A stretch of DNA of 20,000 nucleotides, taken from Seison nebaliae (lineage: Eukaryota). The stretch covers positions 45,081-65,080 of the forward strand of contig JALJEE010002582.1 of assembly GCA_023231475.1 (NCBI GenBank), given 5' to 3'. The position numbers and the translations under genes were made by a program. The stretch's first letter is position 1, and every line of letters begins with the position of its first letter. Positions 1 to 19,457 of this stretch are shown one piece after another. The notes under the pieces are model-generated. The model had not been told where the DNA came from. It saw nothing but the letters and a program-made list of their open reading frames with translations, and searched no databases.

Positions 1-3000
1 TTATCTCATAATTCTTTTTTTATTAGTACACTATAAAAGACACAATGTATGAAATATTTCTATTTCTCAAAGAGGAAGAGATTAAAGCAATCAATTAAAA
101 GAACGTTTAAAATGCCTGATTCCAGATAATTTCCTTATCATAACAAAATGGAAGGTTAGTCCTAATTGAATTATAATAAGAAAGACAATAACCAAAACAA
201 TAACTCTAGGGAATACTATCTACAACTGACCATTGCTCACAGTCTAAATATTTATGAGCAATAACGTTTCCTTATAATTGAGTTAATTCCCCTCAGTTCG
301 ATGGAGATGGAGATATACTATGAGCATACGCCATTCACAAAAATACGTCAAAGAAACATTTCAAATGAAGCATTCTTCTCCCACCAATGGTGGGCCACCA
401 TAACACACATAATAACAGTTGTTTCATTAATGAGTTGTTAAGTTGTTCATTCGACAATTTATTATCAACATGTGAATGAAATGAATGAAATTTTTAAACA
501 GGATACTTTTCTATTTAAATTCATACGAAATAATAAATTTTGAACTGAAAGAAAGAAAGAAGAAATCGAATAAGAGAAATTATGTAAATGACAAGTTTAT
601 CGATTACCTAATTAAAATGCACCAGTTTTTTTCTGGAATGATATTCTAATAATAAGAATTTATTAATATTTACTTGTATTAGTTACGTTAATATTTCTTC
701 GTACATATTTCATTTCTAATGAAATTGAACACGAGTATCGAAACAAATAATTACAATGACAACTACGAAATGAATATTCTATGAATATTCTACGCCCATC
801 CTTTGCCCATAGACTAGACTTCGGGTGTGTAACATGACTCGAATAACGAAATTTAAAAATTCAAAATGAGCAAACCTGTTTGGATAATAATAGATTAAAA
901 TGAAAAGAATTAATGTCACTCCTCAATCTCCCCAACATAAGAATAGATTTGGAAGAAGACTTATTAGAATTTGTGTTATTGGAACAACAAAGTAGTAATC
1001 AGTCTTCAAGGTTCAAAAATCAAAGTTTATTTTGAAGAATATTGTGAAGCATTATGTAATTGAAAGGGAATTCCGGAATTTTTTAATTAGATTAATCGGC
1101 TATTTTATCCTCCATATTTTATCACAACTCTAATTATTGAGATGATTTAATAATTTTTCCCATTCTTAGCATTATGAGATGTTAGTCCAATTCATAAATT
1201 TCTGCCTCACAGCATAAAAATGTTATATAACTGAAATTTTATTCTATGAATGTTTTTTAACTAGTGCGACGAATCGACATCAATCATTAAAGAAGAACGA
1301 TGGGAAATCTTTAACATTTTCCCACATTCGTTTGATTTCCCTTATGCCAACGGGGAATGGTTCGTTCTCCAACTTAAATTTTCCTGCGGGAAACATTTAG
1401 GTCATCACAATAATAGTTTAATTGTACTCCAAGATAATGAAACTGCTCCTTACATAAATCTCCAATATACATTAAGTGGATATTCAATAAGGAATTGTTA
1501 GTCGACTAAAACAATGGTAGTCAGTACAAGAGAGGAAATTAGTCTAGCTAATCAAACAGAAAAACTTTTTTTGGATATTATGAATAATTGAATGGGAAAC
1601 AGTATAATTGTGGAAATAAACCAACAGCAAAAAAAAGTACACCGAGAATTGAATTAAATTCCATGAGAATGAAAATGAAAATTACTGATTGATTTTACGA
1701 GAATATGTGAAGCATATATTATAGTGAAGTATAATATATGAGTTAATGTTCTGGTGCACTTTCTAAATCCGATGTGAAGCAAGTAACCGATTGCTAAATT
1801 CAGGATTAACTCTTAATAATGGAATCTATCTACAACCTTATCCTCCGCTAAATAAGCCGAGTTAGAAATTAGAGAATAAGTAAGCAAAACATCTTGAATA
1901 TTATGATTGGAATTTAGAAGAGGAGAAATGCAGTGCAAATAAACAATGTGCACGGATTCTTTTTTCAAGAAGAAACCCCTAAGAAACCTAGAAAATGTTT
2001 TAGTTGGTCTCTATATAAATTTCCACTTGGATTCTCTCATTTTAAAGTCACAAAGAACAATAAGGAATTTTTTTCGAGAGAATATTTTTCAAGAATAAAA
2101 GAGAATATTAAATTCCACGAGATTCTTGAAACACAAAGTTTCTCCTGAAAGAAAATTTAGAAGTTTAATAAAATTGTTATTAATTTTATCACTACTAAAC
2201 TACATCTACCAAAAACTCCGAGAATTTCTCATAAAGAACAAAAATCTTTTATAGAGTCTCCAAATAATCGATTGTCAGTTGTCTTCGACACTTAAAATCG
2301 GATAACTCTAACTAACTACTAGTAATTATTCTTGTCTCAATATGTTTCAAATTAGACCTGTATTTTCCCACTTGTCAAAAAGATAAGAAAAAATATTTTT
2401 CTTGATTCTTTTTTCGGATATGATTGATTAGTCTTTCCTATTCGAAAGCTAATCGATAGAGAATGACAATAATATCTTACTGCGTTGCATTTGTGCTTAT
2501 TAAGGAAAAAAGTTTTATTTAGTTATGTGAGTTATTTATTATATTTATAATTGTTCATCATAGTCCACTTATTAATTTCGTCAATAAGACAATTTTAGTC
2601 TCCTAGTTTTCCCACTCGATTCATCTCCACAATTGGAGAGAAGTGAATAATCTAAGAAAGAGGATTGCAAGATTATTAATCTTATTTCTAATAGTTACGA
2701 AATAGTTCTATTCACCATTCCAAAAGAGACCACAATAACACTTATTCAACTTCATAATCAACAGTCACCTACTGTTTCATTCATGATACATAACTTTATC
2801 GGTTTTTTTTGAGATAAGAAAATGAGAATTTCTCTTATAGAAATTGAAGAGAAATGAAATATGATAGAAATTTATCATAATCTCTTATAAGTTAAATATA
2901 TGCAATTTTGAAAGATACATAGATCCCACTTATACTTCTTCCGAAGGCAGCCGAATATGAGAGATAAGACGAAATGGACGAACAAGAAAATAATAATCTC

Positions 3001-4200
3001 ATCTATTTGTTTTCGATGGCATTAAGAGAGAAAGAATAAGTGATAATAACATGGAGATTTCCTTTCAATGTATGCAGTGTATACTATGCACCCATAACAC
3101 AATTCCATTCCATTTCATATACACTAACAAGATAAGAACGAAATAATTGAGAGATTATGGATCGAAATACTACAACTATCATTTTCTCCGTTATATTACG
3201 GAATTAAGTGGTCAACTTCTCCAATTTTCTCCTTCATATATCACAATTATCCAACTTCCGAATATGGCTTCCATGGCAAAATAACAAAAAATTAAGCTAG
3301 AGATAACTAGGAGATAAGTTTGATATCCGATTTCCCTTTCACGTACAATTAACTCGTAAATTCAATTAATGTCAAAAGAAACTGTACTTCCTGTGGTTCT
3401 TAATTGAATAGAATTTACGAAACTTATTACTTACATATTATTACGCTAGACCTATCTGATTGGAAGTGCTATCGCCTGCCGAAAATGATTATATCTGGAT
3501 GAAACAAAATAAACTTCTAAGTTTTTTCATAAAGTGCATCTTATTATTATTCCTAAATGTAAATGAATGAAATTAATCATTATATTCTTGACCAAATCTC
3601 AATGTGAAAATCCAAATTAAAATTAAGAATAAACACACATGTTCAAAACAGTCTATTGTTTTTGAGGCATAACTTTTCCCTAACACAAAATAACACAGTG
3701 GATATATCATTAAAACTATCATTCCACATTCCATAAATTATGTAAAATAATTCTAACGATGGAGAAGTAAACAGTGGAAACCGAAAAATTGGGAACCGAA
3801 AGAATAACACTGCTTCACGTATCAAGACAAAAACTAAAACATGAATTTTTCTATGTTATAAAATATACATCATAGAATTATAGTTTTCAAGAATTTAGCA
3901 ACATTATAAAATAGTTTAGATTTGCTCATTATATTATTGAACAATTGGGATTGGATTGATAATTAAAAAGTTTGTCGTACTCCATCGAACTCACAAGAAC
4001 AATAATGAAATAGTTGCAATTTTAAAGAAAGTGAAACCCTTGCAATCTAAAAAGTTTTAATTCTTTAGCAAAAGAAAAATTTAACCTTTTAAAATATAAT
4101 ATGTTATAATCCATACAGGATCCTGTAAAGTTGTGAAGACAAGTAAAATGACGTTATTGATGTGGGAACGATTTGTCGTTAACACGAACAATAAGAGAAA

Positions 4201-4256
4201 TCGGTAAGACAACTTTATTAATTGAAAACATTTGTTTCGGTAAGACAAATCGGTAA
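4201..4256 (+). repeat. Short direct repeat TCGGTAAGACAA x2 plus partial TCGGTAA
   Basis: Copies at 4201-4212 and 4237-4248, with a partial copy at 4250-4256. Confidence 0.8.
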
Positions 4257-5515
4257 CATATGTTACCCAAATGATAATAACAATAATAGTATTAGGTTTT
4301 CATTATTAAATGGTATCGTTATCTCCATATCTATCAATAAATATCTCCACTCCCACATAATAATTACATTGTTAGACAATCATCAATTCCTCATTGGTTG
4401 AGAAATATCAAACTTTTCTGCGTGAACTGTCTTTGAATCAGATGCTCTTGATGGGTTCAGAAAACATACAATAAACTTGTGTTTTGCATCCTCTAATTAT
4501 AATATGCATTCCTGGTTTAAATAAAATTATATGTTAGCTACAAATTACATAATTAGAGAATATTAAATAAATCAAAAATTATGAAAATTAATAATATTTC
4601 TGGTTTTTATTATCTTTCAAAATGGATATATCAATTCTCATAAACATTTTATATATTTATGTGCCAATGTATAACAGATATTTATATAATTATTTGTCAT
4701 CACAGTTTATAATTAATAGGGAATTTTTTAATTTCTTTTTGAACGAAAACTATGGTGAGGAAATGTTTGAATTGATTATTTTACTTAATATAAGTTACTC
4801 TATATGATTAATTATAAAACTTAATAATTTTGAGTATTATCGAATCGATTTTATTTCGTTTTCTTATTTATTAGGAGAAAAGTAAAGGAATAAAATGAAT
4901 TAGTTGAAAGAGAATTTATGTTGAAGCCATGAACCATTGTTTCTGATATGATGAAGGAATCCTTGTCAATTCGGATGGGAAATACTCATTATTAGTTTTC
5001 TTTCTCCAATTGAATCCCAAATGGAAAACATGAAATTGATAATTTGAAAATAGTCCATTACAATTGACCATAAATAAGCGAAACCTCTTTTATACATTTT
5101 TTTCATCAACAGACGCTTTTTATCAATAATCTCTAATGCAAGATGATATGTATGTGGGTGATAAATGGATAGATTAATAAAGAATTGGTCGATCTTTGGG
5201 CGATTTTAAGTATTTAATAATTTTAAGTAGATGAGCAAAAAGAAAAAAAAATTTAATATAAGATTTTTAGGCTGAAAAAAGAAATGTGAAGAACGAATTT
5301 TTTTAGTTTGTTTTGAATTCTCCATTAATCGTCAGTGAAATTTCTGGTATTTTCTTTATTGAAACATTTAATGGAAATTATCGCCACTATTCATAATTAG
5401 TTGTAAAAATAAAAAATTATTGGGAATAAAACAAAAGATAAATTTGTGGACATGTTCATTGTGTGACGTGTAATATTTAAAATTCTTTCGAACACAAATT
5501 TATTAATTCGACTGA

Positions 5516-6593
5516 ATGGCACTACCTATCAATTTAGAAGAGACTTTGGGGAAATTATTCAACTCTTTCAATCCAACGACATCAATACCAGATGAGTTAA
5601 ATGATCGAATAGATGCCAATCATTTCCTCAAACAATTACAGGAAACAATAAACGTTTTCCAGCAACTTTATGATCGTTACAAGTTTTCACTTTATTTCCT
5701 CTGGGAATTATATTATATCTCTTGTGTGAAGGTGTAATGAGATTAGTGTAGCATTTGATGGAGGAAAAGATGGGAGTGTCGTTTTATTTCTCTATTATTT
5801 CATTCAATTCATTCGCACTTGTAACAAACAACAATCTTTAGTTCTTTTCCGTGTGGTAGCTCCGGATAAGAATGATCATTTTAACGAATTGAATGAATAT
5901 GTGAATTTGATAGAAGAAAAGTTTCTTTCTCTTTTTCTCTTTTCTCAAACTAAATTTTCGTTCATTCCCAAGTTATAATTGTCGGATACGAAAATATGAA
6001 ACGAATTTGAAAAATGCATTATATCAATTTCAGGAGGATGAACCCGAAATTAAAGTGGTGTTAATGGGCAATCGACGTAAAGATCCTTATTCATGTTCAA
6101 TTTATTCACTTTCAAAAAATTAAAATTTTTTTAAAAACAGATAATATGAAATACGAAGAATGGACTGATAACAATTGGCCGAGATATTTACGTGTCTTTC
6201 CCATTCTCAATTGGACTTATCACGAAGTTTGGTATTTTCTACTTCGTATGAATCTTCCTTATTGTTCTTTATATGATCAAGGGTTTGTATTTTTATATTC
6301 TTCTATTTATATATTTAACTTTTATATATCAATTTTTCACTAAAATTTTTTAAAAATTTTTCTTTTCAAATATTTGTTTGAGATTTTTTTTGATTATAAA
6401 ATCTTTCTAGATATACGTCCTTGGGACGACGAAGTTGCACGAACAGAAATGAGAAATTATTTATAAAAGATCGATATCTTGCCGCTTATTATCTTGAAGT
6501 TTCCATCTTTATATTTCGATGAGATTTCAAAAGAAAAATTGATAAAAATTATTTAATCAGAATGAAGACGATGAACGGCATGGTCGTACTTGA
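5516..6593 (+). CDS. FLAD1: FAD synthase (FMN adenylyltransferase, PAPS-reductase-like domain only), 246 aa, 6 exons: 5516-5682, 5732-5920, 5973-6094, 6141-6282, 6411-6498, 6561-6593
   Basis: Manual splicing at GT..AG introns gives one open frame (741 nt). Family motifs appear in order: ISVAFDGGKDG (cf. SFNGGKDC), MGNRRKDPYS, TDNNWPRYLRVFPILNWTYHEVWYFL, LPYCSLYDQGYTSLG, and C-terminal YLAAYYLENEDDERHGR. Confidence 0.93.
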
Positions 6594-6611
6594 TATAAAA
6601 CATTACTTAAT

Positions 6612-6617
6612 AATAAA
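6612..6617 (+). promoter_or_regulatory. Candidate polyadenylation signal AATAAA of FAD synthase
   Basis: AATAAA starts 19 nt after the TGA. The AT-rich background lowers specificity. Confidence 0.5.
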
Positions 6618-6723
6618 AATTATATATTAATTTTATGTTGAAGGAAAATGAGTAAATTTAATGATTGTTTAGTTCAAACTTTTAGTTTGTTGATGAAAAT
6701 ATTTCTCGACAACTTATCATCGT

Positions 6724-9700
6724 ATGACTTCGTTTAACATTTCTATTGATCGTGGTGGAACGTTTACGGACGTCTTCATCAGCGACGAGAAAAGAAACGA
6801 ATATTCATATAAATATTTATCGGAAGATCCGAAGAAATATGAAGAAGCGACAGTTCATGCAATTGAGGAATTTGGGAAGAATGAAGGAAATGGTAATAAT
6901 TTAAGTTCGGTTCGTATAGGCACAACGATAGCTACGAATGCTTTATTGGAGAGGAAAGGTAATCGGTTCGCTCTGATTGTGACGAAAGGTTTTCGGGATC
7001 TATTATTGATCGGTCATCAACAACGTCGAGATTTGTTTGATTTGAATATAAAGAAATTGAAAGAATTATATGAGGAGGTTATAGAAATTGATGAAAGATT
7101 CATTATGGAAAGTTCTTCATATAAAATTGAATTTGACATTTTTGATAAATTGAAAAAGAATTCGAATGAGAGAAATGTGTTAGAAATCAAATCATTAGAT
7201 TTGGAAGAATGTCGAAGAGAATTGAGAAAGTTGAAAGAAAAAGGTATTCGGACGATCGCTATTTGTCTCCTTCATTCTTACGTGGAAGATAAACATGAGA
7301 AAGAATTGAAATTAATTGGAGAAGAATTGGAGTTTGATAATATCATTCTATCTAGTGAATGTATGCCAATGATCAAATATGTAGAACGAGCAAGAACAAC
7401 ATCGATTGACGCTTATCTGATGATTCTGATAAAGAATTATGTGGAGAGAATTGAAAGAACAGTGGAATTATTATCGAAGCAATCACCAGTACTTTATATG
7501 CAATCGAATGGCGGATTGACGAATGCTAATCAATTTCGTGGTAGTAATTCCATTTTATCTGGTCCAGCTGGTGGATATGTTGGATATTCGAAGAGTATCA
7601 ACCAACATTATGGAAATGAAATGTCATCAGTTGGATTCGATATGGGTGGTACGTCAACAGATATTTCTATTTTCAATGGTAAATCTTATGAGCATGTTCT
7701 AGAAACTGAACATGATGGAATCAAATTTTATGCACCAGAATTGCAAATTAAAACTATCGCTGCAGGTGGAGGATCATTACTTTCTTATGACGATTGCCTA
7801 ATGAAAGTTGGACCGGAATCGGCAGGATCTTTTCCAGGACCTGTATGTTATCGGAATAACGGAAGTTTAGCGATAACAGATGCCAATCTAATTCTTGGTC
7901 GAATTCAACCGAAATATTTTCCTCATCTGTTTGGGAAGAATCGAAATGAACCATTGGATGTAGTTGAAACGAGAAAAAGAATGATGGAAATGACAACTTT
8001 GATCAACGACGATCGACGTAAACGATGGAAATTGGATGAAAGTGAATTTGAAAAATTTTCTTGTGAGAAAATTGCTCATGGATTCGTTCGTGTGGCTAAT
8101 GAAGCGATGGCAAGATGTATTCAATCTCTTAGTCAAAGTAAAGGAGTTGACATTAGAAATTATCATTTATGTGCATTTGGTGGTGCCGCCGGGCAACATG
8201 TGTGTGATGTTGGTGAGATTTTGGGAATGAAAAAAGTTTTCATTCATCGACATGCCAGTATTCTCTCATCATTTGGACTATCGTTAGCAGATATTGTTAA
8301 TGAGAAACAATTGACGTTTCAATGTAATTTAACGGAAGAGAATTTGAGAAAAATGAACGAAACTTTTCTGAAGTTGAGAAACGATTTATTAGAAATGATG
8401 AATAATTATCAGAAAGATAATAATTCTCAAATCTTATTAGAATATTTCGCTATCATTCGTTATGAAGGCAGTGATTATCATATTCAAATAAAATGTTCAG
8501 AAGAATTTTATGATGGTAAATCGATAAATATTAAAAATTCTGTCGATTTCATTTATAATCAATTTGTTCAAAAGTTTTTTTTAATTTCAAATTTATTTTA
8601 TCCAATTTCTTTTTTGTTTTTAGACATCAACAACAATTCGGTTTTATTTTAGAAGATAATCGATTATTTATCAATGATTTACGTTCTGTTTGTCATTTGA
8701 AAACTGGAATATCTGACAATGAATTGAATGGAATGAAGAAAATAAATTTAATCAATTCCAATTTGATCAATGCTAAAGATGTAGTAAATTGTTATTTCGA
8801 TGATGAGATACGGAAAGTGCCTCTGTATAAATTGGAAGAGATTTTAGAAAAAATTCCAAACTCTGATAATTCGATGAATATGATGGAAATTGCAGGACCA
8901 TCAATAATCGTTCATCCGTTTAGTGTAATTGTGGTGAAAATAAAATGGATAAGTGAAATATTTGCGAATGGAAATATTTGTCTGAAGAAAAAAAATGAAA
9001 AAGAAAAAGATGAAATAAAAAAGATTCGTTTAGATAATGAAGATAAATATGATCCGATAGAAACATCATTATTTTCTAATCGATTTACTGGAATCGCAGA
9101 AGAAATGGGTAGAGTTCTCCAAAAAACTTCATTGTCAACGAATATTAAAGAGAGATTAGATTTCTCATGTGCATTATTCAATCCTGAAGGATTATTAGTA
9201 GTTAATGCACCACATATTCCTGTTCATCTCGGTGCAATGCAATCTGCAATCGAAAAACAAATGATTTTTTTCAATAAAAATAATCCTTTGAAAAAAGGTG
9301 ATGTGATTTTATGTAATGATCCAAAATTAGGTGGATCTCATTTACCTGATTTGACGGTCATCACACCAGTCTTTATTGAAAATAAAATAAAATTCTATGT
9401 TGCAAATCGTGGTCATCATGCTGATATTGGTGGGAGTACACCAGGAAGTATGCCCGCATTCTCCACTCACTTATTCGAGGAGGGCGCTCTTTTCTCTCAT
9501 TTCAAATTAGTTGACGAAGGGAAATTTATGGAGGAAGAATTGAAGAAAATCTTCATGGCGCCAGGTAAATTTGATGGTTGTTCAGGAACGAGAGCTTATC
9601 ATGAAAATTTATCGGATTTGAAAGCACAAATTGCTTCGAATAATATTGGTTGCGAATCTTTAATTGAACTATGTTCCATTTATGGTTGTGACGAGATAAT

Positions 9701-10768
9701 TCATCAAATGAATTTAATTCGAGAGATTGGGAAAGAATCGGTTGAAAAATTCATTTCGTCTTGGAGACCACCATCCAATCAATATGTTGTTAAAGAAGAT
9801 AACGAAATATTGGAGTTGTTTGGAGAAGATATGATGGATGATCCAAATATCATATTACGATTACGATTATTTTTGAATAAAAATGAAAATCGATTAATTT
9901 TGGACTTTTCTGAAACTTCTGATCAATCAAATAAAACGAATTTGAATACACCTTTCGCTATTGTTATATCTGCCGTCATCTATGCAATCCGTTGTCAACT
10001 ATTAAGAGACATACCTCTAAATCAAGGAATTCTTGATAGAATTGAAATTAAAGCAAGGAGTGGTTGTCTATTAAATCCGAGCGGTGATTGTGCAGTCGCA
10101 GCTGGAAATGTATTAACTTCTCAACGAATTGTTGATATAATTTTCAAACTCTTTGGATGTTGTGCAGCATCTTCTGGTTGTATGAATAATATCACTTTCG
10201 GTACGAAGAATTGGAGTTATTACGAAACTGTTTGTGGAGGATCTGGTGCCACACCATCAGCTCATGGTACCGATGCCGTTCATACACATATGACGAATAC
10301 GAAGATAACAGATGTCGAAATTCTCGAGAGTCGTTATCCAGTCGTTCTTTTAAAATTTTGTATTCGTAAAAATTCTGGAGGAAAAGGTGAATGGAATGGT
10401 GGAAATGGAATTGAACGATTATTTCTATTTAGATCAGAATTAGATATATCAATATTGACGGAAAGACGACTGAATGCACCTTGGGGTGTTTCACTTAAGT
10501 CGAAGGAAAATAATGAAATTAATGGACAGAAAGGAATAAATCTTATTCAAAATATTCCTGAACGATTAATTGATGACGTTATATCGATATTTTCAACAGA
10601 AACGAAAGATTTGAAAGAAGACATGAAAGTTTGTCCAAGTCGATTCCAAATGAAATTATTTCCTGGAGTTATTAATTTCTACTTTCTTCCACATGTTTAA
10701 TTAATTTATTTATTATTTAGGCAATCTTCCTTTTAGAGACACCTGGTGGTGGTTCATGGACGAATTAA
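6724..10768 (+). CDS. OPLAH: ATP-dependent 5-oxoprolinase (fused HyuA/HyuB-type), 1313 aa, 3 exons: 6724-8573, 8624-10667, 10721-10768
   Basis: Motifs IDRGGTFTD, GTTIATNALLERKG, SGPAGG, FDMGGTSTD, AAGGGS, FGGAAGQH, NIKERLDFSCALF, NAPHIPVHLG, GSHLPD, GHHADIGG, YYETVCGGSGA, HTHMTNT and terminal ETPGGG. The two track ORFs join in frame through a 50-nt intron (8574-8623). A 53-nt intron (10668-10720) supplies the TPGGG tail. Confidence 0.96.
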
Positions 10769-10793
10769 ATTCTGAGGGAAATTATTAGAACAT

Positions 10794-10799
10794 TTTATT
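10794..10799 (-). promoter_or_regulatory. Candidate polyadenylation signal AATAAA of the M13 gene
   Basis: AATAAA on the minus strand ~28 nt after the stop at 10827. Confidence 0.5.
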
Positions 10800-10826
10800 T
10801 ATTTGGAATTTTATAACAACATTAAA

Positions 10827-13779
10827 TTAGAATACGGTACATTTATCGCCATGATTCATTAATGTTCCTTTGGAACAATTGAACACTTTCTGAAATTCCG
10901 GCATGTAGCTTAGGGCACCATTCGTTCTTTTTATATTTCATTTAATTAAAATTCAAGAAATAAAGAAAGAACCTCGTATCTAATTGATATTTTCCTCTCA
11001 ACGTTTGAGAATATTTATAAAAATCTAAAGCCGTAAAACAATTCGTCTAGAGAAGAAATAAGATTTCTAGTAATACGATTATTCAATAAAAAGACAACTT
11101 GAGCGAAAGCGAGAAAGAACACTTTATCATTATTATCAAATCCATTTAGTAACATATTCTTTTGATGTCTTGATTTCCACAACTGGTACGCCTATTTCGA
11201 AATGAATTATTATGTTTCTTTCTAGTAAAATAAAAAGAAGAGAAACTTCATAGGCGATAGCAACACCTCCAGTTTCTTTAATACTCTCTGGAGAGAATGT
11301 AGCACCGTGCATTTTTATCTAAATTATAAAAATTGTTTAAAAGAAAAAAATGAAAATTTTAAACATTTTTATCTTGTTTCTTCCCACTCACATAAACATT
11401 GAATGGTCCTATCGTTTTATTTTGATAAGCGTTGATCACACATTGTTTCTTCCCCACATATCTTTGTCTAGTGAAATTTGTCCAATAGTTAGCATGATTT
11501 CCAAAATATCTACCCATTCGATTATATTGACGTCCTTGTTTTATTAGAGAGAAAATATTTAAATATAAAAAAAGAAAAGCGAACCATATTCATCGATACC
11601 ACCCAACATCCGATAAGCGATAAGTGAACCCAAACTTCCATATTTTAAAGCTTGTGGCCAATCGGGATTAAAGAATTGTGGTTGAGCCATTCCGATTGAA
11701 ACGAGTAATTCATTTCCAGTTGTATAATATTGTGCTTTTGCATCAAATGCATTTATTCCAGACCAGTCATCTTTTTCTATTACCCCAATAATTAGACGTC
11801 CAACAAATAGATTTCTTTCCCATTGATTCCATCGAATAATCGTTTCGAAATATGTATTATGCATATCGAACTAAAGAAGATAATAATAATAAAAGAAAAG
11901 AAAAAAATAAAACTCTAGAATAATATTTGTCGATAGCCATATCTGATCCTAACATATTGTAATAACCGAGAGATAATTTCATATTATCTAATTTAGCGAA
12001 AGTGTATTGTTTTGTTTGGTCGTCCATCCAATCCCATTTTCTACTACGACGAAGTATCGCGTTCTTTAAATCGCTAACCATCTCCGAAATCTTTGGAATA
12101 TATAAGGAATGAAAGATTATGAGAGAATCATAAATTTCAAATTAAACATAATCCTTCGTAAATGGTTGAACAACTTTCGAAATGTACAATCGACTTAATG
12201 CGGTTGGCATATAAATTCTCATCTGACGGAAACATTCATCAGCTGTCGAGAGAAAACTTCGAGTACGCGATTTCTCACTACGATATTGTCGGTACAAATC
12301 CATATATTTCACGCCCATTTTATCCACATATCGGAAGACAAATTGCCAAATTAAATAATTGTGCAATTGTCTTGAAAATGAATTATAAAGAAATGAGAAA
12401 AAAAACTGACTGAAATTTGAAACCTTTTCGAGTTATCATCGCCAAACTTCTTTGTTTTGTAAAATCCCATAACCTGACTCAAATAATCTTTCTCGGACAA
12501 GAGAATAACAGTGTCATTGTGGAAATTGGCTTCTTTGAATAATTCTTTAAAGAATGAATTAAAATCGAACTAATCAATTTATACAATTATATAAAATGTA
12601 TAAATTATAATAAATATCAAAATTATTAATAACATCATCTCCTAATTGCGTTGTCAAATTTTTCAATGTAATCGACTTATCCTTTTGGTCACCTGGAACT
12701 GGTATTGTACCTCCAATCGTCTTAGAAATTCAGAAAATTATTAAAAATACAATATAAGAAATGTACTTTAGCAATTGCTGTCTCCATCAATAATATATCA
12801 TCGACGACTTGATCTCTTGTAGCATTGTTAATGGGAACACCAGTATCTTGCTGCATCATAGTCACCACACGACCTATGAAATTGCGCAAAGCTGGGATAC
12901 TCTAAATGATTAATTGATTTATGATGAATATGGATTATGAGAGAAAAACAATTGAACTTTGTTTTTACTAGGTGAATATAAATAATCAGAGAAAGACATA
13001 GATATACCTCCATAATCAATCTAAAAAAGTTTTAAAGAAATTTTTTGAAATTTTCATAAGAAATAACATCTAATAATTTCGATCGTTGATCTTGGGCAGA
13101 TATGCGAGTACTGAAAGTAAATAATACATCCGTCCAATAATCGATATGGAGCATTCGAACGACATTATCAAAATCATAATTGGCAAAATTCATGGTTGAT
13201 AAAGCATACCAGCCGCCCAATTTAGTAAAGATTTTTTGGATTTGAGGTATCGTATTTTTCGAATTACCAAAATCGTCAAGACATTTTCGATACATTAGCT
13301 AATGAGAATATCATATAATAGTGAAGAATTCGATACAATTCGAATGAAAATAATTAAAGAACTTTCAATTTTCTTTCATAGGATTCCGATGAATATCGAT
13401 CGATAGAATCTTGTAATAATCCTTCCATTTTTTGTCTTTCATTCGATCCGATCAAACTGAATTGATTATAATAATAAGAAGCACTTGGCACGTTGTGACT
13501 CTCTGTCCATTTCTGACAGGCATATTCATAAAAATTGTCACAAGGATATAATTTCTGATTCATATTGCTCAACAACTGATTTGCAGCGTTAGCACAACCT
13601 AAACTGCTACAAACTCCCACGTTACTTCGAGCAACGTCAGTTGGTGAAGAATTGGAATTCGAAGACGATCCATTTCCTGCAGTTAACCATGCGACTAATG
13701 CAAGAATGGCAAATAGAATTGTTGTTGCAGTGAGAGCAGCTATCGTTTGCAATTTCCGTTTATCGTTAAGTTCTACCAT
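10827..13779 (-). CDS. Neprilysin/endothelin-converting-enzyme-like type II membrane protein (peptidase M13), predicted catalytically inactive, ~757 aa, 14 exons; introns 13299-13362, 13021-13067, 12902-12957, 12721-12766, 12570-12633, 12371-12423, 12091-12147, 11871-11913, 11535-11584, 11319-11364 (donor ambiguous), 11192-11246, 11047-11098, 10927-10972
   Basis: N-terminal hydrophobic anchor (TIAALTATTILFAILALVAWLTA) and Ser-rich stalk. M13 motifs: CSSLGC, PCDNFYEYAC, LGGW, HNYLIW, WMDDQTK, INAF, QPQFF, YGSLG, FFLAFAQ, EFQKVFNC and terminal CTVF. All 13 junctions keep frame (2274 nt). Confidence 0.92.
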
Positions 13780-13874
13780 TTCTTCTTGGCTATAAAGTAA
13801 ACATGAAAAATGTGATTATTACTCGTTACCGAATATTAAGATAATTAAAAAAGAAGTTGACGAAAAAATGAGGA

Positions 13875-13880
13875 TTTATT
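13875..13880 (-). promoter_or_regulatory. Candidate polyadenylation signal AATAAA of NOL9
   Basis: AATAAA on the minus strand ~60 nt after the stop, followed by U-rich sequence. Confidence 0.5.
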
Positions 13881-13938
13881 ATTACTACAAATATAAGAAA
13901 TAGTTGATGAAAAGATAAACAAAAGAATAGAAATTTTT

Positions 13939-15975
13939 TCAATTAGAAGTTGATTGTTTATTCAAATAAGATTCGCGCTCACGTCGTTTGAATGGCGTCT
14001 GTCCAAATATATGGAAATTATCATTCTCCATTGTCGTATTAGCCGATTGGGAGATGGTTTGGAAATTTCGGGTGAAACGGTCATAGACGAATAAATCCAA
14101 ATCAGGAAGAATAATACAATTGACTGAATCAATTTCAATCGGTTGTGTAGAATAAAAATTAATAAAATTATCATCAGAAATCTCATCAAAAATCGCTAAA
14201 GATTGGAAGTGAAATCTTTTTGGAAATTGTAAAGAAATCTTACAAAATCCATTTAAATGTAGAATTGATGAATTTCCATTTCCATTTTCATGTGATGCTG
14301 ATGCTAGAACAATGATATGTTGTTTCCAATGACTAAAATAATTTTCGATTGTACAAGTTGTCTGAGTTGTTTGTAAGAATTCCGTTCCGATCACGATATT
14401 CAAATCAGTGATATCGAGATAAAATAGAATTTTATTTAAATTTAATCGACATCTCTTTCCATTATCATAAGAGAGTGACGGTGGAATTTGTGAGTTAAAT
14501 TTCAAGACATTCGAGAAACTTATCAAATTATTGATCAATCTCATCGATTTAGGATTTTTTAGTAATCGGTTTTGTGGAGTGATTAAATCATTATTCGATT
14601 TATTATATTGGTTGATAATTTGATGAAAATGAGTGGAGACCAATAATTGATAATTCATTCGTTGATAAAAGGTCAAACGACTGATAATATAATTGATTGA
14701 TGGATTTTGACATAAGACATCCAATTTAGATTTTCCCATTATCATCATAAATTCTGCATTGAGTAAATCATTATAAAATTTCTCATTCCGTCGAACTGAT
14801 TCACAATAAATGATTTGATTACATTGTGTGAGAAATATGAGAATTTGAATAATATTCAATCCGAAATGATGAATGAATCCCATCGTATTGATGAGAAGTA
14901 TAGATCGTTCCGTTTGGTTATTCGATTTATATTGACGTCGATTGAATTCAGATATTAAATTTATTAAAATTCTCATGTAAATGTTATAACTGGAATGTGA
15001 AACGGATTTATAACCATAATATTTTGAAGAAATATTAAATTTGTAATCCGATTCTTCTTTCTCATCCAATTCATTCATAATATGTAACCAAGAACTGGAA
15101 TGAATACAATTAATGGATTGAAATGATAAATTCTTTGAATTCTCTTCTTTAGAACGTTGACAATGAATTAATGATAAGAAACCAGATGCTGTAAATTCTG
15201 GTTGTCCAACATCGCAATCCAAGAATGATAAATTGTATTTTGATTGATGTGTCAACAAATAATTCCATGTGTATCTCAATCTGGTCGACTTTCCTGTATG
15301 TCGATCGCCAACAAATAAAAGAGTTGACGGGAAATGATCACGATTATTAATTCCATCAGTTAAATTCAATAAATATTCATAAAACGATTCCTCAAATATC
15401 TGACACATATTCAATTCAATTTCAGGAGATATTCCCTCAACTTCATTATCGTTTTCTGGAAATAGTGATGGTAACATTGGATTATTCAAATAGAAATCTC
15501 TCAATTTTCCAAAAGTGAATGTTCCGTTATGTTTCTCTAATTTTCTTGTACGAAAAATAGAGATGAATTTGCAGTGAGAATTTTTTACATAAAATTGATC
15601 GATAATTCCCGATACTTCTATGGCAGTTCGATTTAAATAGTTGGAAATTGATGAAAGAAATTGTTTATGTTGTTTTACTTTTATTCCAGTTCTAAATGCG
15701 ATCGGAATCGCCATCATATTCTCCAATGAAATAAATGGAGTCCACTTTTCATTTTCTACGAAAATTCCTCCATTCACCACAATTTCACCACAAATCACAT
15801 TGAACTCAAATACTCCATGAGCATAAATCGCTTCAAATTCATTTTGACGATGTCCAACAAAAACAACATCATTTGAATTTCCCGATACTTTATTTTTGAT
15901 AATAATCGATCGAATTTGAGATTTAGGAATTGGAGAAATCCATGACAAAGTTTTCATTGAATCTGACTCCGACAT
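13939..15975 (-). CDS. NOL9: Polynucleotide 5'-hydroxyl kinase NOL9/Grc3 (Clp1 family), 678 aa, intronless
   Basis: P-loop GDRHTGKST, FLDCDVGQPEF (cf. DxDxGQxEF) and LINTMGF (cf. NTxGW). The length and long N-terminal extension fit NOL9/Grc3 better than Clp1. Confidence 0.85.
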   Translation of the reverse strand: MSESDSMKTLSWISPIPKSQIRSIIIKNKVSGNSNDVVFVGHRQNEFEAIYAHGVFEFNVICGEIVVNGGIFVENEKWTPFISLENMMAIPIAFRTGIKVKQHKQFLSSISNYLNRTAIEVSGIIDQFYVKNSHCKFISIFRTRKLEKHNGTFTFGKLRDFYLNNPMLPSLFPENDNEVEGISPEIELNMCQIFEESFYEYLLNLTDGINNRDHFPSTLLFVGDRHTGKSTRLRYTWNYLLTHQSKYNLSFLDCDVGQPEFTASGFLSLIHCQRSKEENSKNLSFQSINCIHSSSWLHIMNELDEKEESDYKFNISSKYYGYKSVSHSSYNIYMRILINLISEFNRRQYKSNNQTERSILLINTMGFIHHFGLNIIQILIFLTQCNQIIYCESVRRNEKFYNDLLNAEFMMIMGKSKLDVLCQNPSINYIISRLTFYQRMNYQLLVSTHFHQIINQYNKSNNDLITPQNRLLKNPKSMRLINNLISFSNVLKFNSQIPPSLSYDNGKRCRLNLNKILFYLDITDLNIVIGTEFLQTTQTTCTIENYFSHWKQHIIVLASASHENGNGNSSILHLNGFCKISLQFPKRFHFQSLAIFDEISDDNFINFYSTQPIEIDSVNCIILPDLDLFVYDRFTRNFQTISQSANTTMENDNFHIFGQTPFKRRERESYLNKQSTSN

Positions 15976-16606
15976 CTTCTTTCTATTCTTCTAATAAACA
16001 AACCTCATCAATTTACAAAAAAAAACAAGATAATGCTGCAAATTCCACGTTTATTTACCCGCTCAAAATTTAAATTAAATATTTTTGTAACAAACTTAAT
16101 GAAAAACATTTTAATTAATTCATTCATTTAATTATGTTTAATTATTCGTTATTAATCGATTAACACATTTAATTTCCCTGGAAACTCAACAAGTGAAATC
16201 CTCCTATAAATTCTCAAGTTTTTCCGAAAACGTTTTTGAAGATTTGAGCAAAAATATAATTTAATTATCGCTAAACAATTTAGGAAACAAGAATATTAAT
16301 TAATTAATTTATTTATTTATTAATATACAATTTTTTAAAAATTATATTTCTAACATACTTGGAAATAAAAATAAAAATTTTTGATAATTCATCAAAAATA
16401 AATTGAAGAAAAATATATATTGCAGTTCATCGATTAATTAGTGGAGTGAAGAATCTTCGTATTTACTATCTACGTATATTTAAAAAAAAATCATATTCGT
16501 ATTATTAATTGGGATAAAATTGAAAGGAGAAATGTGAACCTCAATATTTTTCAATTTATAGAACAATTGAATTTGGTTTATCACAATTATTGGTCGAAAT
16601 TTCATT

Positions 16607-17404
16607 ATGTCTAATTTCAAAACATTTATACTTCTCTCATTTTTACTTCATAAAGTTTGGGAAGTAGAAAATTCGAACTGCGGGAAGACTGTTGGAGGTC
16701 GAATTGTTAACGGTTATGAAACAAAGACCTATTATCCATTCATGGTTGCTATAATGGTGAATAATCAACAAGTGTGTGCCGGTAGCATTATTTCTGAAAG
16801 AACTGTAATGACTGCCGCTCATTGCGTACGAGGTTTCCAAGCATCCCAAATGCAGATTATCACTGGGACGAATAATCTTGTACCACCATTTCCAAAAAAT
16901 TCGCGAAGAATTAAAGTAGCGTGGACAAAATATCATCCCAATTACGCTCCAAATATTCAACATAACGATATAGCTGTCATTCGATTGCAATGCGCAGTAC
17001 CATTTACAGGTCCGAATCAAATAGGAGATATAGTTCCTGCATGCTTACCTCCAGCAGGAACAGAATTCACAGGTCGTTCCAATTGTATTTTGATTGGTTG
17101 GGGACAATTGTCGAAATATGGACAATCCGTACCCAGATTAAGGGAAGTTAAATTACCTATTCAAACTCCTTACACATGCACTAAAAAATATGGTGGTTCT
17201 TTTGTTCCAAAGACAATGATTTGTGCCGGTGATCAATCTGCAAGTGGTTGTCATGGCGATTCGGGTGGACCAGTAATATGTACACAAGGGTCGACTAATT
17301 ATGTGGCGGGTGTTGTGTCTCACGGAGATAATTATTCCTGTAAAGTAAACGGAGTATACACAAAAGTCAATGCATTCTTATCATGGTTAGGAAAGTATAA
17401 ATAA
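16607..17404 (+). CDS. Secreted S1A (chymotrypsin-fold) serine protease 1, 265 aa, intronless
   Basis: Signal-like N-terminus, propeptide CG...R|IVNG, and intact triad motifs TAAHC / NDIAV / GDSGGP. Confidence 0.95.
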   Translation: MSNFKTFILLSFLLHKVWEVENSNCGKTVGGRIVNGYETKTYYPFMVAIMVNNQQVCAGSIISERTVMTAAHCVRGFQASQMQIITGTNNLVPPFPKNSRRIKVAWTKYHPNYAPNIQHNDIAVIRLQCAVPFTGPNQIGDIVPACLPPAGTEFTGRSNCILIGWGQLSKYGQSVPRLREVKLPIQTPYTCTKKYGGSFVPKTMICAGDQSASGCHGDSGGPVICTQGSTNYVAGVVSHGDNYSCKVNGVYTKVNAFLSWLGKYK

Positions 17405-17552
17405 AATTATTCAATACAATTAAACATCAAATAACGAAATTAGCGAAAATTGAATAAGTATTTATACGAACGAAATTTGTAGTATAAAGATAATGTATTA
17501 GTTTTTATATAAAGCATTTTCGAACAATTAGAATATAAACTGAAAATATCAA

Positions 17553-18341
17553 ATGAACATTCAAATTCCATTTATCATATTATTCCTTCTTTTTCATCGA
17601 TCTGAAAGCAACCAATGTGGTAAAGTATTATCTTCGCGCGTCGTTAAAGGCTATGAAAGTAAAAATTATTATCCTTTTATGGTAGCATTGACAGTTAATG
17701 GTGGATTGACTTGTGGTGGTAGTCTTATTAGTGAAAGAACAGTATTGACAGCTGCCCATTGTGTTTATGGTATGAATGCAAGGATGTTCCAGGTCGTAAC
17801 CGGCACAAATGACCTTCGTAATAGAGGTAAAAACTCTCGTTTAGTGGGAGTTGCTTGGTTTAAATATCACGAATCTTTTGATCATGAAATGCTAACCTAT
17901 GATATAGCAGTAATGAGATTAAAATGTTCAGTACCATTTACAGATCCTAAGCAGCCCGGAGATTTGATGCCAGCTTGCCTTACACCCGTGGGAAAAGAGT
18001 TCGTTGGCAGCCAAAACTGTCGCTTGATTGGTTGGGGTAAAACATCTACGTACGCTTCAACCGTCACTAAATTAAGGGAAGTTAGTTTACCGATTAACAG
18101 TGCGTATACATGTCAGCTGCTTTATGGAAATACTTTTAATGGGCAGAAGCAAATTTGTGGTGGGGTAAAACATGGAGTCACTAGCTGCAATGGAGATTCC
18201 GGTGGACCTCTATTGTGTAAGGAAGGCACCACAACTTATTTAGCGGGACTCGTATCATATGGAACAAGATTAGGTTGCATTTATCCTGGTGCTTTTACCA
18301 AAGTGAATGCATATCTTTCCTGGATAAACAAATATAAGTAA
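17553..18341 (+). CDS. Secreted S1A serine protease 2, 262 aa, intronless
   Basis: Signal peptide, CG...R|VVKG, TAAHC / YDIAV / GDSGGP. Collinear paralogue of its neighbours (same KYK* end). Confidence 0.95.
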   Translation: MNIQIPFIILFLLFHRSESNQCGKVLSSRVVKGYESKNYYPFMVALTVNGGLTCGGSLISERTVLTAAHCVYGMNARMFQVVTGTNDLRNRGKNSRLVGVAWFKYHESFDHEMLTYDIAVMRLKCSVPFTDPKQPGDLMPACLTPVGKEFVGSQNCRLIGWGKTSTYASTVTKLREVSLPINSAYTCQLLYGNTFNGQKQICGGVKHGVTSCNGDSGGPLLCKEGTTTYLAGLVSYGTRLGCIYPGAFTKVNAYLSWINKYK

Positions 18342-18668
18342 ATGATTCATATTGAATTTTATCATGTTAATTTGATTCTTATAAAACTGAAATTATAGAA
18401 ATTAACACGAACGACATCTAACTTGCTCTATAGAATACAATCATTCCATAGAACAGAGACCGACTGTTTCTTTTAATATTGTCAACTAATTTAGTAAATT
18501 AAAAATTTTATATATGACGACACTTATTTTAGGAGCAACCAATTCCTCTACAAAGCGAACTACGTATAATTATTTTATGTTCAATTACTTCAATTGTTAA
18601 AGATATGTTCAATTGTTCTACCGTGCATAAGGAATCGAATTATTCACTTTTTGTCTAATGATCCTACA

Positions 18669-19457
18669 ATGAAATTTTCATTTATTTCTCTCATAATCAT
18701 TAGTTGTTTAAGAATTGCTTATGGAACTGCGTGTGGCGAAGTGATTAATGGTAGAATCGTGAATGGATATCAAACTAAAAAAATTTATCCTTGGATGGTT
18801 GCAATATTTGTAAATGGACAAATATTCTGCGGTGGTACTCTTTTCAACGAACGAACTGTGTTAACGGCGGGGCATTGTGTTAAAGAAATGTATGGAGCTA
18901 GTGCATATAGTGTTCTTACAGGAACCAATTGGATATATGATAAAACTCGGAAGAATATTAGAAGAATTGGAGTACAATGGATGAAACAACATGAAAATTT
19001 TGGTAATTATCATAATGATATTGGAATACTTCGATTGAAATGTTCAGTTCCGTTTACTAGCTCACCGAAGCAAGCTGGAGATTTGATGCCTCCATGTATT
19101 CCAAGTAAGGCCAGCGATTATTCAAACCATAAAAATTGTTACGTTATTGGATGGGGTCAAGTAGCGAAGAATGGTTTCCCTATGGCTCACTTGAGAGAAG
19201 TCAAACTCCCAATGAAAACTAATTATATGTGTAAAAGTAAATATCATCAGCAATATGATGAACATCAAATGGTTTGTGGTGGTGATTCAACGGGAGCCTC
19301 TTGTCATGGGGATTCGGGTGGCCCCTTAATGTGTCTAAGTGGAAGTCTTATGTATCAAGTAGGAATAGTTTCTAGAGGTAGCTTAACTACTTGTAAAGAC
19401 CTCACAGTTTTTACCAGAGTCAGTGCATTTCTTAGTTGGATAAATAAATATAAATGA
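18669..19457 (+). CDS. Secreted S1A serine protease 3, 262 aa, intronless (ATG start at 18669, not the TTG at 18594)
   Basis: MKFSFISLIIISCLRIAYG signal peptide, CG...R|IVNG, TAGHC / NDIGI / GDSGGP. The length from this ATG matches the two paralogues. Confidence 0.93.
   Translation: MKFSFISLIIISCLRIAYGTACGEVINGRIVNGYQTKKIYPWMVAIFVNGQIFCGGTLFNERTVLTAGHCVKEMYGASAYSVLTGTNWIYDKTRKNIRRIGVQWMKQHENFGNYHNDIGILRLKCSVPFTSSPKQAGDLMPPCIPSKASDYSNHKNCYVIGWGQVAKNGFPMAHLREVKLPMKTNYMCKSKYHQQYDEHQMVCGGDSTGASCHGDSGGPLMCLSGSLMYQVGIVSRGSLTTCKDLTVFTRVSAFLSWINKYK

Follow-up and report, generated by a model that had tools for sequence, protein, structure and literature searches.

The window analysed here is a stretch of 20,000 nucleotides (nt) of the Seison nebaliae genome (assembly GCA_023231475.1, contig JALJEE010002582.1, positions 45,081 to 65,080 of the forward strand), and the subject of this work is the 5' splice sites, or donors, of 20 introns in three adjacent genes within it. 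Seison, an epizoic seisonid rotifer (Syndermata) placed with the acanthocephalans, comprises two distinct lineages and has a genome size near 46 Mb (PMC8351084). For S. nebaliae, a genome as well as mRNA-seq and small-RNA data have been reported (PMC8351084, PMC12256650). The first gene, on the forward strand (5516..6593), encodes an FAD synthase-like protein of 246 amino acids with a PAPS_reduct domain (PF01507); it has five introns, and its spliced model equals the deposited SNEBB_010635. The second, also on the forward strand (6724..10768), encodes a 5-oxoprolinase (OPLAH) of 1313 amino acids with Pfam hydantoinase domains and 100% identity to SNEBB_010636, and has two introns. The third, on the reverse strand (10827..13779), encodes an M13 protein (neprilysin/ECE-like, 757 amino acids, SNEBB_010637) with 13 introns, assigned by the domains PF05649 and PF01431 and by a homolog profile; one of its exons is 100% identical to SNEBB_010637, the sole protein returned when M13 exon sequence was used as the query. 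In all three genes the donor signal consists of GTT preceded by an exon end rich in A.

The introns are written below as the last three exon letters and the first six intron letters. In the FAD synthase-like gene, intron 1 (5683..5731, 49 nt) has the donor caa/GTTTTC, and intron 2 (5921..5972, 52 nt), with aaa/GTTTCT, is without an alternative donor. Intron 3 (6095..6140, 46 nt; cat/GTTCAA) lies 18 nt downstream of an in-frame GTAAAG that the deposited model leaves unused. Intron 4 (6283..6410; agg/GTTTGT), at 128 nt, is the sole long intron and interrupts the YDQG-YTSLG motif, and intron 5 (6499..6560, 62 nt) begins gaa/GTTTCC. The two OPLAH introns are found at 8574..8623 (50 nt; aaa/GTTTTT, without an alternative donor) and 10668..10720 (53 nt; gga/GTTATT). 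On the reverse strand, M13 introns 1 to 5 are located at 13299..13362 (64 nt; aaa/GTTCTT), 13021..13067 (47 nt; gat/GTTATT), 12902..12957 (56 nt; aaa/GTTCAA), 12721..12766 (46 nt; aaa/GTACAT, the sole non-GTT donor) and 12570..12633 (64 nt; gat/GTTATT). They are followed by introns 6 to 9 at 12371..12423 (53 nt; aag/GTTTCA), 12091..12147 (57 nt; tat/GTTTAA), 11871..11913 (43 nt; aga/GTTTTA) and 11535..11584 (50 nt; atg/GTTCGC), and by introns 10 to 13 at 11319..11364 (46 nt; aat/GTTTAA), 11192..11246 (55 nt; gaa/GTTTCT), 11047..11098 (52 nt; caa/GTTGTC) and 10927..10972 (46 nt; gag/GTTCTT). Thus 19 of the 20 introns are 43-64 nt long.

These positions and donors had been proposed in a first-pass annotation made from the letters alone, and all 20 were recovered from homology and the deposited gene models. 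Mapping the deposited OPLAH and M13 proteins on the window gave 2 and 13 introns, and the translation of the five-intron FAD synthase model agreed with the deposited 246-residue protein letter for letter. Because deposited models could share a gene-finder bias, the junctions were re-tested independently. An in-frame stop blocks read-through of every intron; for eight introns, no second GT donor that would preserve the frame exists within 36 nt, and in four more the only alternatives are themselves GTT. For M13, a spliced-alignment profile built from 17 non-Seison homologs at the top of the match list, which admitted any GT or GC donor and left the donor unscored, chose the same 13 introns in all four penalty settings. 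The M13 homologs align across the junctions with no large gaps, both OPLAH junctions are colinear with seven homologs, and the GT and AG ends restore the conserved reading frame in all 20 introns. Read-through and mis-called junctions were both rejected.

One junction, that of M13 intron 10, had been left ambiguous. An in-frame consensus GTGAGT lies on the reverse strand at 11386..11391, 27 nt upstream of the GTTTAA donor at 11364 and inside conserved exon sequence. Evidence came in part from a diverged haplotype, seen when DNA contigs were aligned to M13 at 80% likeness: its low-depth pieces are about 82-90% alike to M13 in exons, and the piece at 11362-11537 spans the 27 nt between the GTGAGT (11391) and the GTTTAA. 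Most of the displayed M13 homologs also have residues in this stretch, and the blind profile chooses 11364. The GTGAGT was thereby ruled out as the donor of intron 10, and the GTTTAA was settled on. Since the haplotype covers this stretch, the homologs encode it and the blind profile skips the site, a consensus GTGAGT donor appears to be passed over in M13, as far as sequence comparison can tell. The same haplotype bears on the donors themselves. In all four donors reached by the pieces listed (47 further pieces lay outside that set), namely those of introns 2, 10, 11 and 12, the alignment ends exactly at +3 (13065, 11362, 11244 and 11096, respectively), and beyond it the haplotype contigs continue unlike the window; GTT is common to both, and +4 is not. 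High-depth contigs near-identical to the window were also present, in four runs that make up one sample; they may be its source, and for this reason they are not independent support.

Across eukaryotes, the purine at +3 and the G at +5 are, GT itself aside, the most strongly conserved parts of the donor. The 20 introns belong to the GT-AG class and depart from the GTRAGT donor consensus: a purine stands at +3 in 1 of 20, A at +4 in 3 and G at +5 in 2, and GURAG is absent. The full counts are T19 A1 at +3, T10 C6 A3 G1 at +4, T9 A5 C4 G2 at +5 and T10 A6 C4 at +6, with A11 T5 G4 at -1 and A16 G3 T1 at -2 in the exon. The counts of the first-pass annotation (+3T 19/20, +4 pyrimidine 16/20, +5G 2/20, -1G 4/20, -2A 16/20) were reproduced, as was its statement that the pattern spans three unrelated genes on both strands. 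Base composition inside the introns (899 nt) is 53% T, 30% A, 12% C and 5% G. Against this T frequency of 0.53, T in 19 of 20 at +3 has p=6e-5, and against 0.45, the highest rate of GT followed by T in the flank at 1-5400, p=3e-6; at -2, A was observed 16 times where 7.1 were expected by codon position (p=6e-5). The +4 pyrimidine (p=0.12), +5G (p=0.23), -1G (4 vs 3.4 expected, p=0.45) and +6 remain at background level in the 20 donors. Only +3T and -2A stand clearly above background, and the signal therefore reduces to an A-rich exon end plus GTT. Information over background amounts to 0.52 bits at +3 and to 0.06-0.20 bits at +4 to +7. Minor departures are C at +4 (6/20, nominally high at p=0.025, uncorrected), the absence of C at +3 (0/20, p=0.02 given a pyrimidine) and A at +4, low at p=0.10. 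It had also been argued that AT-richness alone would favour GTA as much as GTT; GTT does lie far beyond composition, and the equality fails in introns with 53% T and 30% A.

Several explanations are directly confronted by these counts. Donors may have decayed under relaxed selection to GT plus local T-richness, with three neighbouring genes overstating GTT as a sampling fluke. The low information at +4 to +7 is in keeping with this, and so is a sample that consists of one contig. On the other hand, T at +3 far exceeds the intron T frequency, a GT inside these same introns is followed by T in just 6 of 15 cases, and the pattern recurs on either strand, across the three unrelated genes and in the diverged haplotype; such a fluke is improbable, and it ranks third among the alternatives considered. 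An ordinary consensus read by U1 in a register shifted by one (GTT-RAGT) is rejected for these 20 introns, in which G never occurs at +6 (0/20). The introns are also not recent copies of a single introner: similarity over the 190 intron pairs stays at the level of shuffled sequences (mean 18.1 vs 17.9; maximum 33 vs 29-40), and the position and phase of OPLAH intron 2 are common to an intron of a bdelloid-like contig described below. Between them, these two readings retain only a slight chance. The U12-type donor motif is RTATCCTT; a U12-type class was rejected, with T at +3 in 19/20 and GTATCC in 0/20 donors.

For comparison with relatives, metagenome contigs were scanned with part of the Rotaria OPLAH, and 7 loci were retained from 148 pattern matches. 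These loci (L014-L020) are 79-86% identical to Rotaria OPLAH and, judging by this identity, would be bdelloids. From L014, 30 introns of 46-65 nt were collected in six genes; the first PSMC1 intron, by eye GTACGA, was excluded. Their donors show A19 T8 G2 C1 at +3, A at +4 in 18, G at +5 in 14 and G at -1 in 18. Fisher tests between Seison and L014 gave p=1e-6 for +3T, 0.003 for +4A, 0.012 for +5G, 0.008 for -1G and 0.04 for -2A. In L015-L020, GTT occurs at 5 of 18 distinct OPLAH intron positions (hand count). The bdelloid-like introns resemble those of Seison in being short (43-65 nt) and AT-rich, with GTT present as a minority; they differ in that GTA dominates (19/30) and +4A, +5G and -1G are retained. 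Even the shared OPLAH intron, in phase 0 after the PG of a C-terminal motif, has GTAAAT in L014 and GTTATT in Seison. Because GTT is a common minority and never dominant in L014-L020, its dominance is not a general rotifer trait. The possibility that such dominance is already general in related taxa was thus not borne out, within the scope of these bdelloid-like loci. The presence of GTT in 8 of 30 bdelloid-like donors may be counted in favour of decay or fluke.

The density of OPLAH introns is itself highly uneven, with 2 in Seison and 12 in the L014 gene at 8042-12530, next to 13 in the adjacent Seison M13 gene; L015-L020 have at least 18 OPLAH intron positions. At the acceptor, position -3 (T11 A7 C2) is near intron composition, for which reason the 3' site is also low in signal. 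The introns of Seison contain 5% G, compared with 14% in L014, and three branch-point patterns tried in each set were not enriched in the Seison or the L014 introns (p 0.16-0.94).

The splicing machinery could be examined through published BUSCO rows (supplement of PMC12256650, with each column identified from its place below the header line). In these rows METTL16 is Missing in Seison alone and present in the other 24 of 25 genomes, the acanthocephalans Pomphorhynchus and Neoechinorhynchus (Complete) among them; the gene has likely been lost in Seison. Also Missing in Seison are SNRNP40 and SPF45, each of which is Complete in both acanthocephalans, and SYF2 is rated Fragmented. Seison and the two acanthocephalans alike have Missing entries for ZCRB1, ZMAT5 and LSm1, the first two being minor-spliceosome components, and for the U6 phosphodiesterase the entry is Missing in Seison as in most rotifers. 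Complete in Seison are 26 spliceosomal rows, including SNRNP27, PRP8, PRP6, PRP31, SNU23/ZMAT2, Dim1, SF3B1 and U2A' (PMC12256650). Among the factors that had been singled out beforehand, the inventory thus answers for METTL16 (Missing) and SNRNP27 (Complete); luc7 was unmatched, and no row for a U1-specific protein occurred among the rows seen. Searching the window against Rfam revealed no RNA family, and viral contigs scanned for U6 and U1 motifs gave no match. A U6 motif scan of genome contigs found 13 loci from other eukaryotes, which have the canonical box by construction and are uninformative on Seison.

The earlier claim that this organism picks its donors differently has held, given the minimal signal of an A-rich exon end and GTT, the sharp contrast with a bdelloid-like relative of similar intron length and the stop of the haplotype alignment at +3. 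We suggest, with somewhat less than even confidence, that a co-evolved U1 has an A with which it reads U at +3, with U6 pairing at +4 to +6 loosened and the A-rich end of the exon held by U5. Under this proposal, the major spliceosome would define each short intron across its own length. With an A at position 6, and perhaps a purine at position 5, the U1 arm would pair with -2, +1, +2, +3 and often +4; at the hand-over, the exon end would be held by U5 loop 1 through its A residues, and little beyond an A:U pair at +4 would come from the U6 ACAGA helix. The likely loss of METTL16, the methyltransferase that places N6-methyladenosine (m6A) on U6, would fit, as elsewhere it shifts donors away from +4A and GURAG. 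Pairing was scored over eight positions with small nuclear RNA (snRNA) arms, that of Entamoeba taken from 10.1101/2022.06.08.495308, and an altered U1 raises it only modestly. The canonical arm pairs on average at 4.0/8 positions in Seison and 5.7/8 in L014, and the Seison donors reach 4.9/8 with A opposite +3 only and 5.2/8 with the Entamoeba arm. Position +3 faces G44 of U6 (PMC11732430). Since C is absent at +3 (0/20) although G44 would pair better with C, an A partner is preferred over G44.

The most serious alternative, which we consider doubtful, keeps all snRNAs canonical and leaves U1 marginal; the donor would be chosen at the hand-over by U5 loop 1, through the A-rich exon end, and by an unmethylated U6 ACAGA (G44 wobbling with +3U and A43 pairing with +4U) after METTL16 loss. 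The BUSCO entry of METTL16, Missing in Seison alone, agrees with this, and the pairing does as well: the mean number of U6 Watson-Crick or wobble pairs at +3 to +6 is 2.05 in Seison vs 1.43 in L014, and the mean count of A at -3 to -1 is 1.85 vs 1.23. Donor commitment has been argued to occur at the transfer to U5/U6 (PMC11732430), GUUUGU can pair better with ACAGA, and canonical U1 has been kept in yeasts, Micromonas and Thecamonas (10.1101/2022.06.08.495308) as well as in Fritillaria (PMC13326754). However, the missing +3C speaks against a G44 partner, +5G, the main U6 pair, is found in only 2 of 20 donors, and the higher U6 score is partly plain T-richness. Yeasts without METTL16 retain GUAUGU (10.1101/2022.06.08.495308), and for this reason the change at +3 is not a consequence of METTL16 loss.

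It is unlikely, though somewhat more probable than a fluke, that a protein (of TIA-1/Nam8 type, a diverged U1C or Luc7, or a Prp8 pocket) reads +3U and a U-rich tract, with snRNA pairing secondary. T is found in 12-15 of 20 donors at +7 to +12, and in Entamoeba U1C is diverged and TIA-1 kept (10.1101/2022.06.08.495308). The BUSCO-missing SPF45 and SNRNP40, present in both acanthocephalans (PMC12256650), imply that the spliceosomal protein set of Seison has changed. The downstream T, however, is close to the interior 0.53, and a tract binder would not fix a single exact position.

Against a co-evolved U1 in Seison several points must be weighed. The whole sample of 20 introns was drawn from three neighbouring genes of a single contig, and the comparator is one bdelloid-like contig (L014, 84% identical to Rotaria OPLAH) and not the sister group Acanthocephala. 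The haplotype result alone is modest, with a chance of about 0.08 if introns are saturated and more if they are not (0.53^4, by hand). U at +4 (10/20) equals background T, and G at -1 and +5, the partners of C9 and C4 of U1, is at background; even an altered U1 would therefore pair weakly. BUSCO Missing is weak evidence in a long-branch genome, as 76 of 526 BUSCOs found in the acanthocephalan are missing in Seison (from PMC12256650). Mutants of METTL16 shift to AG//GU, and -1G is not raised in Seison; METTL16 loss by itself does not explain +3. Entamoeba keeps GUUUGN in 97-98% of introns, which Seison does not. Atypical donors are also found with canonical U1 in Micromonas, Thecamonas and 69 yeasts (10.1101/2022.06.08.495308) and in Fritillaria (PMC13326754). 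The described deviations in Thecamonas and yeasts lie at +4, and the sole +3U case examined had a changed U1 (10.1101/2022.06.08.495308). In favour of the proposal, the absence of METTL16 tracks +4U across yeasts (PMC10581693), and in the C. elegans mett-10 mutant one site moved from UU//GUGAG to AA//GUUGU (PMC11347140).

Under this proposal the GTT pattern would be genome-wide in Seison, judging from the three genes. A fuller form of the co-evolved U1 reading, which we put forward tentatively, is that every intron of an intron-rich genome has been recoded to (A)A(A)/GUU, with a U1 arm changed to A opposite +3 and possibly altered further at the partners of +4 and -1, loss of METTL16 and of U6 m6A, and GTRAGT sites ignored.

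Known donor rewrites are mostly in intron-poor protists and yeasts with strict signals. The nearest parallel is Entamoeba, in which GUUUGU donors go with a co-evolved U1 ACAAAC arm (Roy and Bowser, 10.1101/2022.06.08.495308). Both organisms have near-universal +3U, a pyrimidine bias at +4 and AT-rich introns. Entamoeba, however, is an intron-poor amoeba with a positioned branch point and strict signals (GUUUGU 88-90%, GUUUGN 97-98%; 10.1101/2022.06.08.495308), whereas Seison combines an intron-rich gene (M13, 13 introns) with background +5G, an A-rich exon end, GTTTG in only 1 of 20 donors and no enriched branch motif. The U1 change has been shown in Entamoeba; in Seison it is a proposal. Cases of METTL16 or U6 m6A loss share with Seison the rarity of +4A (3/20 in Seison vs 18/30 in L014), the absence of GURAG and the BUSCO-missing METTL16 (PMC10581693, PMC8163875, PMC11347140, PMC11732430), and the A-rich exon end of Seison may be likened to them. 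In those cases, unlike in Seison, the change is at +4, the +3 purine and +5G are kept and an AG exon end is favoured; the retention of SNRNP27 in Seison is a further difference. Fritillaria borealis is likewise an animal with rewritten donors, and its U6 m6A is reduced; in contrast to Seison, in which all 20 introns are GT-AG with U-rich donors, 95% of its introns are non-GT-AG, its donors are G-rich, and METTL16 and canonical snRNA motifs are kept (PMC13326754).

Rewritten donors, whether or not U1 has co-evolved with them, are already known; what appears to be new here is an intron-rich animal in which +3U is fixed and +5G lost. The literature search found no paper joining Seison with spliceosome terms and no animal with GTT-dominant donors, in a coverage that leaves out most subscription papers. 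Among the titles listed since 2021 that name Seison nebaliae none concerns splice sites, and main-text passages of PMC8351084, PMC10125929 and PMC4901422 contain nothing on Seison donors. Seison, an animal rich in short introns, seems to have given up +4A, +5G and -1G and to have fixed +3U; in its bdelloid relatives the usual donor form persists. It may serve as a natural experiment on whether U1 or the hand-over to U5/U6 decides the donor, and on whether donors in animals evolve in response to METTL16 loss as they do in yeasts. The Seison lineage would also be mis-scored by gene finders that have learned GTRAG donors.

Some further observations concern the genes of the window. In the M13 protein, the position (about 11610-11590) at which the zinc motif HExxH would be expected reads AYRMLGG instead. 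HExxH is missing too in the displayed homologs from Owenia, Haliotis, Branchiostoma and Tubulanus; because it is missing in all of these, the Seison protein likely belongs to a catalytically inactive ECE-like subfamily. The 13 U6 loci mentioned above (L001-L013) are eukaryotic U6 genes, several of them beside tRNAs and with one U4 in L007, in contigs filed under bacterial metagenome-assembled genomes, and as such they are a sign of eukaryotic contamination.

Beyond the three genes, positions 1-5400 contain no open reading frame (ORF) of at least 80 amino acids across 5.4 kb, a long stretch for a compact genome. Three tandem trypsin-like genes without introns lie on the forward strand (16571-19457), the first with PF00089. 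A NOL9/Clp1-like ORF (13939-15990, reverse strand), without introns, encodes 683 amino acids with a CLP1 P-loop domain. The same-strand gaps between the FAD synthase-like gene and OPLAH (6594-6723) and between the NOL9/CLP1-like ORF and M13 (13780-13938) are short, about 130 and 160 nt, and in both a T-rich tract with terminal AG directly precedes the start codon. Each gene pair may represent an operon-like unit with a spliced-leader acceptor; alternatively, the tracts could belong to an intron in the 5' untranslated region.

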